Of a DNA stretch of 64,000 bases, positions 8,938-55,894 are shown piece after piece (within the stretch, counting starts at the first letter, position 1; each line of letters begins with the position of its first letter). A model generated the notes under the pieces. It was not told the DNA's origin. It ran no database searches and saw only the letters and a program-made list of their open reading frames with translations. The stretch is from Capsulimonadales bacterium (GTDB lineage Bacteria; Armatimonadota; Armatimonadia; Armatimonadales; Armatimonadaceae). The stretch lies in NCBI GenBank assembly GCA_033762295.1, contig JANRLW010000006.1:1-64000 (forward strand). Reading direction: 5' to 3'. The position numbers and the translations under genes were made by a program.

Positions 8938-9032
8938 GGGGGTGCAGGGGGTCTGGTGGCCCTCCCGGTCTTCAAAACCGTGCGCGGGATGGTGATGCTA
9001 TCCCGGGTGGGTTCGATTCCCACACACTCCCG
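8938..9032 (+). tRNA. selC: tRNA-Sec (UCA)
   Basis: 8-nt acceptor strands, 6-bp D stem with 4-nt loop, CT-TCA-AA anticodon loop, long variable arm, 5-bp T stem with TTCGATT, G discriminator; CCA not encoded. Confidence 0.9.
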
Positions 9033-50831: not shown

Positions 50832-50865
50832 ACCGCCGCGCAAATCGCGCGGCGGTTTCGTTTTT
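50832..50865 (+). terminator. Intrinsic terminator after tRNA-Leu
   Basis: accgccgcgc / gcgcggcggt stem followed by a T-rich tail. Confidence 0.7.
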
Positions 50866-52714
50866 AACGCCGCCGACGTCCGCTCCCCGGACGGGGCGCG
50901 TTCGCCTGCGCCTCCATCGCGGAAACGCTTCCGACCGCATCGTCCGCCTTTGACAGGTGTTCCACCGTCGCCGCGTCCGTCGGCGGTTCGGTCGCCCCCT
51001 CGACCACGATCGCGTGCGGAACCGCGCGCGAGGGCAGGTGCCGCGCGGTATGGCCGGTGACGATGATCTTTCCGTCGTAAACGATCGAGGTGGAGAAACC
51101 CGAATCCATCAGGACCGCCTCCTTGATGCCCGCCGCCGCCGCCGCGCGCGCCAGTTGCTCGGTCGTGATTACCTCCAGCGACCCGACCAGCATCACATCG
51201 CCGCTGTCGGTAACGCCGAAACAGGCGCGACGCCGGGGATCGTTAAAGTCACGCGCCGAATACGCCTGCATCTCCTCCTTCGTCCGGGGTTCGCCATTGT
51301 GGACGATCCACGCGCCGGCCAGAAAGACGTCGGTCAGGTCCGGAAGGACCGAACGAAGCGTCGGTTCATCGTTCATCGTGTCCGGGTTGAAGGGCAGGAT
51401 CACCATCGCGGTCGGACCGATCAAAACCAGGGGACGATTGCGCAGTTTCGGCAAACGGGTGGGATCGGTTTCCGGGTAGAAGACGGCGTCCTCCCGCGTC
51501 AGGCAGGGACCGATCATCGTATTATCGGTTCCACGCAGCGCCGCGTCGGCGAAAAAGGTCCCGTTCATGCCGCCGACCGGAGTTTCCGACAGCTTGCCGC
51601 TGGCCGCCGCCCGTCGGAGAAATTCGCCGACGGAGAAACGCCCCTGCGGCGAACGCCAGGTGGAGGGTCGGCCGCCCCGCACGATACCCAGCTTGATGCC
51701 GTCGAACTCCTCGACCTGAAGCACAATCGACGCGGACAGAAGCTCCTTGCGTACGATATCGGCCGGGGCGTTCCGGGTCGCCTCCTGACTGTCCTTCCAT
51801 GCCTTCTCCAGACGGGTGTGGATGTAACGGCAGACGCGCAGGATTCCCGGCGACTCCTCCGCCGGTCCGTTGACGATCGTAAACGCCATCGTATAACCGA
51901 CACGTTCCGCCGCGGCAAACGTCTCCTTGTCCCCCGTTCCGTTCGGATAGGCAAAATAGGGCACAGGATGGCCGAGTTGCGATTCAAGGATCGCCCTGGA
52001 CTCGGTCATCTCGCGCTCCTGCTCCTCGATCGGCAGTTTGGCCATGTCCTCGGGGTGGCTGAGCGTGTGCGATCCGATCGTCACCAGGCCGGACGCATCC
52101 AGTTCCCGGAGGGTTTCCCAGTCCATCTTCGGATGCGCGCCTTTTTTATCGCCGACGAAATTCGTGTGGACGAAAACGGCGGACGGAATCCCTTTCTCTT
52201 TCAGGAGGGGATAGGCATTGTCGTAGAACCCCTGGTAGTTATCGTCGAAGGTCAGTACGACGCTGTTCGGCGGGATCTCTTCCCCCTGCGTCAGGTGGCG
52301 ATGAAGTTGATCGAGCGAAAGGAACGTTGCGCCTTCCTGTTCCAGAAAGGCGATCTGCTCCTCGAACTCCTTGCGGGAGCAGTCGAACCAGACGCTGTCC
52401 CGCCCTTTCTCCGCCACGATGTCATGGTACATGATGACCGGCACACGACGGTTCTGCGCCAGCGGACTCATCGGTTGAAGCGTGTTCGGGTCGAACGGGG
52501 TCGCCGTCGGGGACGGGGACGGTGTCGGGGAGGCCGATAAAGCGCCGACGGGTGCGGAGGCCGGGGTCGCGGAGGCCGTCGGATTGCCCGGCAAATACTG
52601 GCAACCCGTCGACAGAACGGCGACGAGAAACCCGAGGCATGCCCGCGCTCCCCGGTGGAATCGAGTTCGCGAAATCAAGAATTTCTCCGTATCTCGGATA
52701 GGGTTTGAGGACAC
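50864..52714 (-). CDS. Polysaccharide deacetylase (CE4) fused to a phosphodiester glycosidase-like domain; probable lipoprotein
   Basis: IMYH, LTFDD, SHTLSH, FAYPNG; then NGTFF, R.R..FG, MDSGFST. Confidence 0.82.
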   Translation of the reverse strand: MSSNPIRDTEKFLISRTRFHRGARACLGFLVAVLSTGCQYLPGNPTASATPASAPVGALSASPTPSPSPTATPFDPNTLQPMSPLAQNRRVPVIMYHDIVAEKGRDSVWFDCSRKEFEEQIAFLEQEGATFLSLDQLHRHLTQGEEIPPNSVVLTFDDNYQGFYDNAYPLLKEKGIPSAVFVHTNFVGDKKGAHPKMDWETLRELDASGLVTIGSHTLSHPEDMAKLPIEEQEREMTESRAILESQLGHPVPYFAYPNGTGDKETFAAAERVGYTMAFTIVNGPAEESPGILRVCRYIHTRLEKAWKDSQEATRNAPADIVRKELLSASIVLQVEEFDGIKLGIVRGGRPSTWRSPQGRFSVGEFLRRAAASGKLSETPVGGMNGTFFADAALRGTDNTMIGPCLTREDAVFYPETDPTRLPKLRNRPLVLIGPTAMVILPFNPDTMNDEPTLRSVLPDLTDVFLAGAWIVHNGEPRTKEEMQAYSARDFNDPRRRACFGVTDSGDVMLVGSLEVITTEQLARAAAAAGIKEAVLMDSGFSTSIVYDGKIIVTGHTARHLPSRAVPHAIVVEGATEPPTDAATVEHLSKADDAVGSVSAMEAQANAPRPGSGRRRR

Positions 52715-52719
52715 CCGGA

Positions 52720-53421
52720 TTATAACATATCCCCCGAAGCACCGTCCCCATCAGCGACCCGTGCCGAACCCTCCGTTCGGGGGGGCCAGTGCAGCATCAA
52801 TAACAGAGGTCCCGAGGTGACGGACAGGGACACGGTCTCCTCGGTCACCAGATTGAGCGTTCCATCCCGAACCCCCGGTTCCAGGCTTTCCCCGGTCAGT
52901 GGCCAGCGCACCCCGGTGAGAGTGATTCCCTCCACCCGCCCCATTGCCAGAAGGGACAGCGTTCTGCCCGGCAGCGTCCGGTCGGAGATCGTGACCGAGC
53001 GTCGGACCAGCCAGGTCTCCCCGTCCTCGTCCACCAGGCGCAGATCCGCACGGTCCCCGTATTTGATGATGGTGGACAGAACGGAGAATACATGGTCCAG
53101 GCGTCCCTGCGTCGCCGCAAAGACGCGAATCTTCGTCGCGCCAAACTCCGCGAGCGATGCCGCGATCGCCTTGTCCAGATCGGTGTAATCCTGATCAGGG
53201 GTAGGAAACACCCGGACTCCCTGTTCGGCCAGACGTCGGCGGTCCGTTTCCGCGAGCGAGTCGAAATCGCCGGTAACGGCGTGCGGAAGCAGTCCCAGAC
53301 GCAGCAGATGATAGGTTCCGCCGTCCACCCCGACAAGAAGGTCCGCGTCCGCCGCCGCGACCCGCAAACGAAGCGCCGCTTCGTCGGTCAGAACGCCGTT
53401 CGCCACCAGTACGGCCAACAT
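52720..53421 (-). CDS. thiN: Thiamine pyrophosphokinase
   Basis: VDGG, GDFDS, DQDYTDLDKA, GRLDH, G.RWPL. Confidence 0.92.
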   Translation of the reverse strand: MLAVLVANGVLTDEAALRLRVAAADADLLVGVDGGTYHLLRLGLLPHAVTGDFDSLAETDRRRLAEQGVRVFPTPDQDYTDLDKAIAASLAEFGATKIRVFAATQGRLDHVFSVLSTIIKYGDRADLRLVDEDGETWLVRRSVTISDRTLPGRTLSLLAMGRVEGITLTGVRWPLTGESLEPGVRDGTLNLVTEETVSLSVTSGPLLLMLHWPPRTEGSARVADGDGASGDML

Positions 53422-53445
53422 AATCCTTTTCCTTCCGCGGTCGCG

Positions 53446-54246
53446 TCAGTCGAACCGCCAGCCCGAATTTTCGAAATTGCCGGTCCCGTCCGGCGTGGCA
53501 AAAAGTCGGTCGAACGCGCCGGCGGACGTGATAAATTTCGCGTGACCGTCGGCGAACACGAAACTTCCGCCGCGCGGGTGCCACTGGCGGTAGTAGGCCG
53601 GGAAGTACCCGTACTTCGCGCCGTTTGCGTCCTGATCGCCACCGAACCACGGGAGCATCTCATCACGCAGGATGCGGGTTTCGGCCGGCCTTTGGAAAGC
53701 GGCGTCGGCGATCGGTCCGCTCGGCGGACAGTAGGGATTGTCGGCATTACAGACGACATTATTCTGGAACGATACCCCGTCGATCGTGCTGAACGTCCCC
53801 CGGGTGAATCGATAGGACGAACCGTAACAATCGCGGTAGGAGCCTGACTTCGTCGGGTAGTCCCGGCATCCGCCGTACTCGACGGTACTGACCGTCCCGG
53901 ATGGAACCGGCCCACCCTGATCATTCGGGCAACGGAAGGCGTCCCGCGCTTTGACATACGGCCAAAGGGCGACCTCCACCCCTTTGTGCCCGTCAACGTC
54001 CGCCGGGGGCTGAGTATTGTAAGCGTGGAAGATGGGCCAGATCTCATCGTAATCCTGCACGTACATCCGTACGGCAAGCCCGATCTGGCGCATATTCGAG
54101 AGGCAGGTTACCTCGCGGGCCTTTTCGCGGGCCTGAGCGAAGACGGGAAAAAGAATCGCGGCCAGAATCGCGATGATGGCGATGACGACGAGCAGTTCGA
54201 TCAGCGTGAAGCCGTGATCGGGCGACGGGTGTCGGTCTGTTTTCAT
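53446..54246 (-). CDS. Prepilin-type / DUF1559 protein with H-X9-DG motif, downstream of a TPP riboswitch
   Basis: [50 protein letters not shown] upstream of ATG 54246. Confidence 0.93.
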
Positions 54247-54328
54247 CAGGGACCTTTCCTCCCGATTTCCGGTTCCCGGCGCGGGCCGAAAGCGGTCGCC
54301 CCTTCGAAAAGGTTTGTTGCCGGGCAAC

Positions 54329-54358
54329 AAAAAACACCTTCCCGAAGCGGTGAAGGTG
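54329..54358 (-). terminator. Riboswitch-controlled intrinsic terminator
   Basis: Minus strand CACCTTC-accgcttcgg-GAAGGTG followed by TTTTTT. Confidence 0.8.
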
Positions 54359-54393
54359 GCAGACGACACGGACCATGGCCCGTCCCGGTCCCC

Positions 54394-54498
54394 ATCCGCT
54401 TCCCTCCGCCGGTACGAACCGGATCAGGTTCCGGGGTCGGCCCAAAGCCCTCTCAGCCGCATGGCGCATTTTACGCGCGGAACGGCCCCCCCAGCGAA
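54394..54498 (-). promoter_or_regulatory. TPP riboswitch aptamer (THI element)
   Basis: Minus strand GGGG..CC...GGCTGAGA...GACCC..AACCTGATCCGGTTCGTACCGGCGGAGGGA with P1 ttcgct/agcgga; thiN lies in the downstream operon. Confidence 0.93.
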
Positions 54499-54521
54499 CG
54501 AAAAACCAATTATGTTTCTCC

Positions 54522-54550
54522 ATCATATCGATGCGGGAGGCATCTGTCAA
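54522..54550 (-). promoter_or_regulatory. Sigma70 promoter driving the TPP riboswitch transcript
   Basis: Minus strand TTGACA-17 bp-TATGAT just upstream of the aptamer. Confidence 0.8.
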
Positions 54551-54598: not shown

Positions 54599-55894
54599 AT
54601 GCCGGAAACATTGCGCCAAAAGTTATTGCCATTCATCGTGGAAACCGTCCGTCGGTCGGAAACGTTCGCCGGAAGAACGGTCCTCCTTGCCTTGCTTCTG
54701 GCGGCCACCTGGTGGCAGGTACGCATGGCGGTTTCCGGTGACTGGTTTCGCTCCGGCAACGACATGCTCTATATTCTCCCGCCGCTGCGAAGCGCGACCG
54801 ACGAGGCCCTCGTCGGCTGGCTGCGCGGCCCGTGGATCGGCGTGGAACTGTTCGCTTACTACCGGCCGGTCACCAGTGTTTTCTGGTTTACGGAGTACCG
54901 GGTTTTCGGGGAGCAGGTCGCCTCCTGGCAACAGGTATCGGTCGCTTCGCACCTTGGCTCCACCCTATTGCTGGCGCTACTGCTGACCCGGATGGTCGGC
55001 TCGCCTCTGGCCGGAACGATCGGCGCGTTCGTCTGGGCTACCCGCGAAAAGATCGTCGAAACCCTGGAGTGGACACCGGCACAGACGGACCATTTTGCCG
55101 CCTTCTTCGGCATCCTGGGATTGTTTCTCTGGCAGACCTTTCTGGATGCCCGCGGACGACGCCCGTCTCGGTTTCTTCTGGGAGGCGCATCGCTCGTTTC
55201 CGTGCTTCTTGCCCTGGGTTCCAAGGAGATCGCCTACCCGGTGCCGCTCCTCGCGGCGCTTTTGACCCTGCGAACCGTTCGTCTGCCGTTTCGGACGCGA
55301 ATCGCTCTGTGCGGGGTCTGGTTCGCCCTCCTGACCGGCTTTGTCGGATGGCGGATTCTGGCAATGCAGGGAATCGGGTTTCTACCCGGACAGGCGACGC
55401 CCGGACGGTCGCAGGCCAGTCCCCTCACCCCGCAAAAATGGCTCGTCCGAATGAGCGGTTTTTTGCTTCCGCAAGTCCTCCGGCCGACCGCGCTTCTTCC
55501 CTTCCCCGCCGTTCTCTCGGTGTTCGCCGGAATCGCGGCCTACCGTCGGTGGACTTCCGTCAGAACCCGGGGGGTGGTTGCTCTGATCGCCGGCGTGCTG
55601 TTTTTCGTGTTCATGGGCGGCCCGGAATGCCTTTTGTTGTCCGATACGTACACGGAACTTGCGCTCGGGCTCTGGACGCTGACGGTGGTGGCCTTCGCCC
55701 TCCGGCGGGAGCCGCGCGAGATGGCGTTTGCTCTGATCTGGGGACTGGTCGCCCATCTGCCCCTGTACCATGTCGTCTACAATGCCGCCGGTAACGTGAC
55801 CTACCTTCCGGGCATCTACTGGGGGCTGGTCTGGTCGATCCTGGTCGTTGCCCTCCTCCGGTTCGTGGGAACCCGCAGCGAATCGGAGGTATAG
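54599..55894 (+). CDS. Polytopic membrane protein, GT-C-like
   Basis: YYRPV, H..S..L, E...W, L.SKE motifs seen in TMTC/GT-C-like proteins; more than 10 TMs. Confidence 0.6.
   Translation: MPETLRQKLLPFIVETVRRSETFAGRTVLLALLLAATWWQVRMAVSGDWFRSGNDMLYILPPLRSATDEALVGWLRGPWIGVELFAYYRPVTSVFWFTEYRVFGEQVASWQQVSVASHLGSTLLLALLLTRMVGSPLAGTIGAFVWATREKIVETLEWTPAQTDHFAAFFGILGLFLWQTFLDARGRRPSRFLLGGASLVSVLLALGSKEIAYPVPLLAALLTLRTVRLPFRTRIALCGVWFALLTGFVGWRILAMQGIGFLPGQATPGRSQASPLTPQKWLVRMSGFLLPQVLRPTALLPFPAVLSVFAGIAAYRRWTSVRTRGVVALIAGVLFFVFMGGPECLLLSDTYTELALGLWTLTVVAFALRREPREMAFALIWGLVAHLPLYHVVYNAAGNVTYLPGIYWGLVWSILVVALLRFVGTRSESEV

Follow-up and report, generated by a model that had tools for sequence, protein, structure and literature searches.

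A thiamine pyrophosphate riboswitch precedes a pilin-like DUF1559 gene and thiN in an Armatimonadota genome, a candidate thiamine-salvage operon

The window analyzed here comprises the first 64,000 nucleotides of contig JANRLW010000006.1 (contig C6 in our numbering), from a Capsulimonadales bacterium whose 5.16-Mb Armatimonadota assembly (GCA_033762295.1) is 94.5% complete. On its minus strand, a thiamine pyrophosphate (TPP) riboswitch stands directly ahead of a gene for a type IV pilin-like protein of the DUF1559/H-X9-DG family, which is followed by thiN, coding for thiamine diphosphokinase. The pairing of the TPP aptamer with this pilin-like gene recurs far beyond chance in related loci. We consider it probable, though well short of certain, that the two genes form a thiamine-salvage operon in an organism that imports thiamine, repressed by TPP through a transcription-terminating riboswitch, in which the head of the pilin-like protein would capture thiamine for a carrier and ThiN would trap it. 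A preliminary description of this DNA had listed the promoter, the aptamer, the terminator, the prepilin-type gene with DUF1559 and H-X9-DG features, and thiN 24 nucleotides (nt) further on, and all of them are present in the order of transcription:

54550..54522, minus strand: promoter-like site of the sigma-70 type, TTGACA-17 nt-TATGAT, with 11/12 consensus matches
54502..54384, minus strand: TPP aptamer (THI element, RF00059), 63.3 bits against a gathering score of 54.3, E-value 4.4e-10
54358..54335 (hairpin) and 54334..54329 (U6), minus strand: intrinsic terminator, ViennaRNA local fold of -13.8 kcal/mol
54263..54253, minus strand: Shine-Dalgarno-like GGGAGGAAAGG, read from the sequence, 6 nt before the ATG
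54246..53446, minus strand: coding sequence of the pilin-like protein, 266 amino acids (aa), with N_methyl, DUF1559 N-terminus and H-X9-DG, a member of the clade called TPP1 below
53421..52720, minus strand: thiN coding sequence, thiamine diphosphokinase, 233 aa, with TIGR01378, PF04263 and PF04265

What the preliminary description had taken for a complete THI element was matched at full length by the covariance model (model positions 1-105 of 105). The terminator hairpin, a 7-bp outer stem and a 3-bp inner stem followed by UUUUUU, starts 26 nt past the aptamer, so that the expression platform of a TPP riboswitch is present as well. A simple terminator scan, limited to loops of 3-8 nt, did not list it, presumably because the outer loop exceeds that limit, and it was local folding that found it. 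No antiterminator was seen by folding, the minimum-free-energy fold of the whole leader (z -2.0) recovering neither the aptamer nor an antiterminator; a 7-nt complementarity between the 3' strand of P1 and the terminator is visible by eye. Promoter-like sites numbered two in the region, with 0.3 expected from shuffles. The longest open reading frame (ORF) of the pilin-like gene (53446-54369, minus strand, GTG start, 307 aa) extends back over the terminator to the edge of the aptamer, and the open frame recovered in the genome-wide search is of 567 aa; with such long frames running across the leader, automatic gene calls could mask the riboswitch.

ThiN scores 136.8 bits with TIGR01378 (cut-off 76.4), that is, at equivalog level, and bears both domains of thiamine pyrophosphokinase (TPK), PF04263 (88.3 bits) and PF04265 (36.2 bits). 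The protein encoded ahead of it matches the N_methyl models PF07963 (37.8 bits) and TIGR02532 (36.5 bits), the H-X9-DG model TIGR04294 (20.9 bits, cut-off 19) and the DUF1559 profile PF07596 (40.9 bits, cut-off 23.3), the last over only positions 2-32 of its 268; its head appears too divergent for that Pfam profile. It has the marks of a class III signal peptide (a basic leader, the motif GFTLIE with its cleavage site between G and F, a glutamate at +5 and a hydrophobic alpha-1N), and we counted its six cysteines, along with this signal, toward an extracytoplasmic character. Among its Pfam and NCBIfam matches there was none to the thiamine families ThiT, ThiB/TbpA, YkoE, PnuT, ThiV or Thiamine_BP. 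The full-length AlphaFold2 model (predicted local distance difference test, pLDDT, 78.6; predicted template modeling score, pTM, 0.74) consists of an N-terminal helix of 50 residues and a mixed head. A Foldseek search of the PDB gave nothing at an E-value of 0.001 or better and aligned only the N-terminal helix to pilins, and a PDB profile search with the orthologue profile described below (A1) likewise matched only N-terminal helices (Geopilin, PilA and others). VIA-align matched residues 12-249, weakly (Z 2.6-4.8), to pilins or pseudopilins in 21 of its 22 top matches and to a pilus-like fiber subunit in the other one; the best was Thermus PilA4 (Z 4.8, 122 residues aligned), and PulG and EpsG were matched weakly too. 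The head domain alone found only unnamed clusters in the ESM Atlas.

Related loci were retrieved (79, mostly from Armatimonadota), and 40 of them were scanned with Rfam. Each of the 20 closest loci (50-80% identity) has a TPP aptamer ahead of the gene and on its strand, as do 7 of the next 20, which makes 27 of 40 overall, the loci without it being those with 34-40% identity over most of the protein or with N-terminal matches only. The observation is thus a real one, and the expectation that the pairing would be kept in relatives was borne out. The pilin-like gene is always the first after the aptamer, its start usually lying 54-157 nt away, and two of the 27 riboswitch loci hold two such genes in tandem. 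Its partners vary more. thiN follows it in 13 of the 27, and no thiN was found among the scanned same-strand downstream ORFs of 12, which argues that what the switch consistently controls is the pilin-like gene rather than thiN. A permease of the sodium:solute symporter family (SSF) comes after thiN in four TPP1 loci (L004, L014, L015, L016), and a YkoE-like permease (PF09819) lies behind the pilin-like gene in one (L023). The preliminary description had the riboswitch controlling the pilin-like gene together with thiN; the aptamer and terminator directly upstream, the order of the genes and this conservation all speak for such control.

To follow the pairing through the phylum, a profile (A1) was built from 27 orthologues and run on 151 Armatimonadota genomes, among which 104 carry TPP aptamers (127 matches). 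The scores split clearly, with 52 genomes at 291-415 bits and the next best at 194 bits, and matches of at least 290 bits were taken as orthologues. In all 52 orthologue-bearing genomes, positions compared by hand put the aptamer immediately before the gene and in its orientation. ThiC was found in 87 of the 151 genomes and not in the other 64, and its distribution is nearly complementary to that of the orthologue: 49 genomes have only the orthologue, 84 only ThiC, 3 both and 15 neither, a table that overstates the independence of its entries, since the genomes are interrelated. The pattern is repeated within genera. In genus g9, one genome (G121) has ThiC behind the riboswitch and no orthologue, and its four sister genomes show the reverse; in genus g60, G072 is the reverse of its five sisters.

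There remained 43 aptamers in the sample that adjoin neither an orthologue nor ThiC, and the ORFs downstream of them were scanned. The majority stand in front of genes for the thiazole or coupling steps (Thi4, ThiG-ThiE-ThiO) or for salvage (ThiM-ThiE-ThiD, a CytX-like permease, ThiD, a YkoF-like thiamine-binding protein). Seven, however, precede a second, divergent pilin-like DUF1559 gene, which we call TPP2 (L089, L093, L096, L100, L106, L107, L123). All seven TPP2 genes are in ThiC-negative genomes, and four of their operons include an SSF permease (L089, L093, L107, L123), two of these with TPK too, which brings the pilin-bearing TPP operons with an SSF permease to eight. Taken together, a TPP aptamer stands before a pilin-like gene in 59 of the 151 genomes and in 56 of the 64 that are ThiC-negative. 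Two genomes, G111 and G039, code behind their second TPP aptamer for a homologue of about 220 aa (L104:281-931, plus strand; L105:2858-3523, minus strand) that aligns to the helix and head of the family (hhalign probability 98%) and ends in H-x9-DG or H-x9-DD; it has no G-F cleavage motif and carries extra N-terminal hydrophobic segments. This homologue may be a head that is not anchored as a pilin, which would argue that a filament may not be required. In the ThiC-bearing genome G083, a TPP aptamer is followed by Thi4 and then by a very divergent DUF1559/N_methyl gene with a long branch in the tree (L091:1764-2594, minus strand).

The association is not universal. As a control we used 151 genomes of 0.7-3 Mb from another phylum, that of the genome bearing L061 (Planctomycetia). 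TPP aptamers were present in 30 of them, none of the 30 loci has a pilin-like gene downstream, and the first genes were Thi4 or the thiamine monophosphate (TMP) synthase in 8 of the 8 loci scanned.

The source genome fits the ThiC-negative side of this pattern. The aptamer of the window is its sole RF00059 match, and it has no flavin mononucleotide (FMN) riboswitch. Neither ThiC nor ThiE is matched in this assembly of 94.5% completeness, and ThiD, ThiG and Thi4 give only short partial matches (20-32 bits) that resemble generic kinase, barrel or Rossmann segments. With no convincing ThiC, ThiD, ThiE, ThiG or Thi4 in the genome, the organism very probably needs intact thiamine, and ThiN would be its way to TPP. 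Among machinery of possible relevance, there is a prepilin peptidase (PF01478), nine T2SSE-family ATPase matches (four full-length and five shorter, the latter taken to be PilT-like) and only one match to a TonB-dependent receptor.

The question of the carrier is less simple. The preliminary description suggested checking whether canonical thiamine transporters are missing, and ThiT, YkoE and ThiB were not found in this genome, nor was an orthologue of the SSF permease of the relatives, the best match having 23% identity; a PnuC-family carrier does exist elsewhere, on contig C62, and it passes the cut-off of the PnuC (nicotinamide riboside) equivalog model. This protein is possibly the inner-membrane carrier of thiamine here. 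It had also been supposed that the pilin-like protein occupies the place of a transporter. No transporter gene is found in this operon, which agrees, but the riboswitch operons of relatives hold a permease besides the pilin-like gene. Since these relatives add an SSF or YkoE-like permease to the operon, the pilin-like protein would be an extra component of the envelope and not a substitute for the membrane transporter, and an outer-envelope receptor or a binding protein seems the better analogy.

The source genome codes for about 137 DUF1559/N_methyl-type paralogues: the A1 profile gives 141 matches among its ORFs of at least 100 aa, 126 of them at 100-250 bits. A tree was built from 114 proteins, namely 27 TPP1, 7 TPP2, 34 linked to cobalamin (B12) riboswitches, the one adjoining Thi4 and 45 further paralogues drawn at random from this genome only, all above 100 bits and with its two riboswitch-linked members excluded. 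TPP1 forms one clade (27/27; Shimodaira-Hasegawa approximate likelihood-ratio test, SH-aLRT, 100), TPP2 another (7/7, SH-aLRT 99), and 33 of the 34 B12-linked proteins fall into a third (SH-aLRT 97). None of the 45 sampled paralogues without riboswitch is inside any of these clades, and fitting the riboswitch labels to the tree takes 5 changes, where shuffled labels take 56.8 on average.

Across the paralogues the N-terminal helix is nearly the same, and the head domain differs. Identity over residues 13-37, in the helix, is 87-97% both inside and across all groups, and the glutamate at +5 is invariant in the four groups. For the head (residues 69-215) it is 52% among TPP1 proteins and 21-24% against the other groups. 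Fifteen positions are conserved throughout the family (E17, C48, N51, Q54, Y62, D65, D67, Y97, C106, P107, Y141, H223, D233, G234 and H235), and eight more are invariant only in TPP1 (Y76, H87, G89, E91, S144, F147, F201 and W222), their frequency being 14% at most in each other group. We infer that aromatic and carboxylate residues of this kind would be expected around a thiamine ring system. Considering the conservation of the pairing, its distribution complementary to ThiC and these clade-specific head residues, the tie to thiamine acquisition put forward in the preliminary description appears, in regulatory and comparative terms, to be strong.

That paralogues might be specific for different ligands, a wider idea of the same description, is backed by the separate clade behind cobalamin riboswitches. 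The only such riboswitch of the genome (C7:6506-6617, 36.7 bits against 31.5) is followed 150 nt later by a pilin-like paralogue of 264 aa with N_methyl and DUF1559 (region C7:5562-6617; L126, L157). We examined 51 cobalamin-riboswitch loci, the 30 best-scoring, 20 picked by hand from weaker-scoring families and that of the genome itself, and in 35 the first gene on the same strand is a member of the DUF1559 pilin-like family; the base rate, from the A1 matches in the genome, is estimated at about 3% of genes.

In the mechanism that we propose, low TPP would lead to read-through past the terminator, and the pilin-like protein and ThiN would be made. The former would be processed as a prepilin by the prepilin peptidase, and the N-terminal helix that it shares with its paralogues would anchor it in the cytoplasmic membrane or hold it within a short (pseudo)pilus. 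The head specific to the clade, exposed to the periplasm or at the cell surface, would capture thiamine or a close vitamer and hand it to an inner-membrane carrier, which in relatives would be the ThiV-type SSF symporter or the YkoE-like permease and here possibly the PnuC-family protein. ThiN, whose function is assigned by family membership, would convert the imported thiamine to TPP and act as the trap. As to the anchor, a shared machinery would be favored by the very high conservation of the helix and by the nine T2SSE matches, and a fixed anchor by the homologue without prepilin signal behind a TPP aptamer.

Several points weigh against this proposal. Everything in it beyond regulation is drawn from comparison, and the comparison is among interrelated genomes. 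The fold searches gave only weak pilin matches and no ligand-binding fold among them; a periplasmic binding protein (PBP)-type fold, implied by the Pfam identifier SBP_bac_10, was not among the listed matches, although absence from the list does not exclude it. The model of the head alone was poor (pLDDT 53.4), too poor for a pocket or fold search. The PnuC-family gene adjoins SIS and HAD genes and has no riboswitch and no thiamine context. ThiC and the orthologue occur together in three genomes (G022, G141 and G109), and in G109 the ThiC is broken: it follows a TPP aptamer of its own and is split into three pieces, with a TGA inside (G109:C10:72979-74218), which may reflect an ongoing loss of synthesis or a fault of the assembly. 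Finally, both pilin-like clades are absent from eight of the ThiC-negative genomes (G014, G074, G081, G082, G100, G114, G117, G132), which shows that the pilin-like protein is not the sole thiamine route.

The alternative that survives best would place the capture outside the cell. The protein may be a minor or tip pilin on a shared type IV pilus or type II secretion-like machine that binds thiamine beyond the outer membrane and, on retraction, brings it in through a secretin, as competence pili do with DNA. The near identity of the helix, with its invariant glutamate, can be read as a stronger constraint than simple membrane anchoring would impose, and the genome holds the nine T2SSE-family ATPase matches and the prepilin peptidase but just the one TonB-dependent receptor match, when the equivalent TPP-controlled gene of Bacteroides codes for a TonB-dependent outer-membrane transporter (PMC5613172). 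On the other hand, the homologue of G111 and G039, with extra hydrophobic segments and no cleavage motif, suggests that the head can work from a fixed anchor, and no pilus machinery genes were found adjoining the operon within the window. We regard pilus retraction as somewhat unlikely, though a genuine contender.

Adhesion and motility are common roles of type IV pilin-like proteins, and a starving cell might make one to change its attachment, its movement or its contact with vitamin-producing neighbors, with no part in uptake. Such a response would suit the 12 loci in which the riboswitch precedes this gene only and the scanned ORFs include neither a transport nor a kinase gene. Where operon partners are present, however, they are specific to thiamine (TPK, the ThiV-type SSF permease, the YkoE-like permease), and a different clade stands behind cobalamin riboswitches, when a generic behavior would not need heads matched to the ligand; hence, we find this explanation improbable.

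Quite improbable, too, is an extracytoplasmic enzyme whose head would dephosphorylate or convert TPP, TMP or damaged thiamine into a transportable form. There are conserved histidines and acidic residues that we judged able to hold a metal, H87, E91 and D109 in TPP1 and H223, D233 and H235 family-wide, and VIA-align returned weak matches to inositol-monophosphatase-type folds (Z 2.1-2.6). The family-wide three are conserved in all paralogues whatever their riboswitch and thus look like scaffold rather than thiamine chemistry, the phosphatase-fold matches rank below at least 20 pilin matches and within the stated noise range of the method, and no enzyme family of Pfam or NCBIfam is matched by the protein. 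The view that the switch is there to serve thiN, which alone in the operon of the window has a known thiamine function, with the pilin-like gene merely lying between, we rejected as having next to no chance of being right, for it is contradicted by the loci in which that gene stands first and without any thiN among the scanned ORFs, and by the aptamer at every one of the 52 orthologues.

Other features of the window can be listed briefly. A few bases past the stop of thiN, on the same strand, starts a gene of 616 aa with polysaccharide deacetylase and NAGPA domains (50864-52714, minus strand), and no terminator was found between the two; it adjoins thiN only here and in L020, and was rejected as a member of the system. 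Divergently, about 50 nt beyond the riboswitch promoter, starts the gene of a hydrophobic protein of 431 aa (54599-55894, plus strand) with no match in Pfam or NCBIfam. At 8938-9032 (plus strand) there is a selenocysteine tRNA (RF01852, 69.9 bits; ARAGORN anticodon tca), and the related locus L035 likewise bears one.

Control by a vitamin riboswitch is, to our knowledge, not a known feature of pilins, and our literature search on TPP riboswitches and pilins did not bring it up either. The search likewise found no report of a TPP riboswitch paired with a DUF1559 or pilin-like gene in the literature outside subscription-only papers and bioRxiv supplements, and the pairing appears to be undescribed in print. 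With type IV pilins and type II pseudopilins (Thermus PilA4, 6xxd; PulG, 5wda; EpsG, 4lw9) the protein shares the class III signal, the glutamate at +5, the long N-terminal helix and a pilin-like arrangement. It differs from typical pilins in a head of about twice the size, in the weakness of the structural matches (Z of at most 4.8) and in having about 137 paralogues in one genome.

We know of no member of the DUF1559/H-X9-DG family with a known function. The family is among the largest groups of paralogues in Planctomycetota and Armatimonadota, and the combination of DUF1559/SBP_bac_10 with N_methyl has been reported from Planctomycetes in 91 genes of Tuwongella and 68 of Planctopirus, as proteins of unknown function (PMC8567305, PMC10632474) that were recovered in detergent-soluble membrane fractions (PMC8567305). 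The domain pair and the massive expansion are the same as here; unlike the proteins in the available text of those papers, which are assigned no ligand or regulator, clades of the present family are linked to riboswitches for TPP and cobalamin. A riboswitch reveals the ligand that it senses, so that two clades behind TPP aptamers and one behind cobalamin aptamers give the family testable roles in binding thiamine or B12. A tentative generalization, possible but some way from probable, is that the DUF1559/H-X9-DG family is a modular system of nutrient capture, with a near-invariant handle, a shared pilus-type machinery and some 137 interchangeable heads per genome, each tuned to one scarce ligand, each gene under the sensor of its own ligand, and that it would take vitamins across the envelope, as TonB-dependent receptors do elsewhere, in Armatimonadota and probably in the phyla of the Planctomycetes-Verrucomicrobia-Chlamydiae (PVC) group. 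If true, vitamins would be acquired through pilin-type proteins where other diderms use TonB-dependent receptors or classical binding proteins, and this would explain how the widespread B1 auxotrophs of soil and freshwater phyla obtain thiamine.

BtuB, the outer-membrane receptor of B12, is a TonB-dependent barrel controlled by a cobalamin riboswitch. The arrangement found here is similar in that a vitamin riboswitch directly controls a protein of the envelope, and the pilin-like gene of the 35 cobalamin loci stands in that same position; the protein itself differs, being pilin-like and not a TonB-dependent barrel.

For the inner membrane, ThiV-type sodium:solute symporters have been described behind TPP riboswitches, for example in SAR11 (PMC11452348). 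The SSF permeases of the eight related loci resemble them, being PanF/PutP-like and placed behind a TPP aptamer after thiN or the pilin-like gene, and all share an F-H-Q motif without variation. By description, not by alignment, this agrees with the phenylalanine-histidine signature that has been reported in HMP/thiamin symporters (PMC11452348). What sets them apart is the pilin-like partner, of which the available text of that paper describes none for ThiV.

The closest described system is that of Bacteroides thetaiotaomicron, whose TPP-riboswitch operons for thiamine uptake code for the TonB-dependent OMthi, PnuT and Tnr3 (PMC5613172); OMthi, pnuT and tnr3 form one operon in most gut Bacteroidetes and serve growth at low thiamine (PMC5613172). 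The likeness lies in the plan, a TPP riboswitch followed by an envelope component, and this in turn by an inner-membrane carrier and a thiamine pyrophosphokinase. The parts differ: here and in the relatives the first gene codes for a prepilin-type DUF1559/H-X9-DG protein, putative in its role, in place of a TonB-dependent barrel, and the carrier, where the operon includes one, is of the SSF or YkoE-like type and not PnuT.

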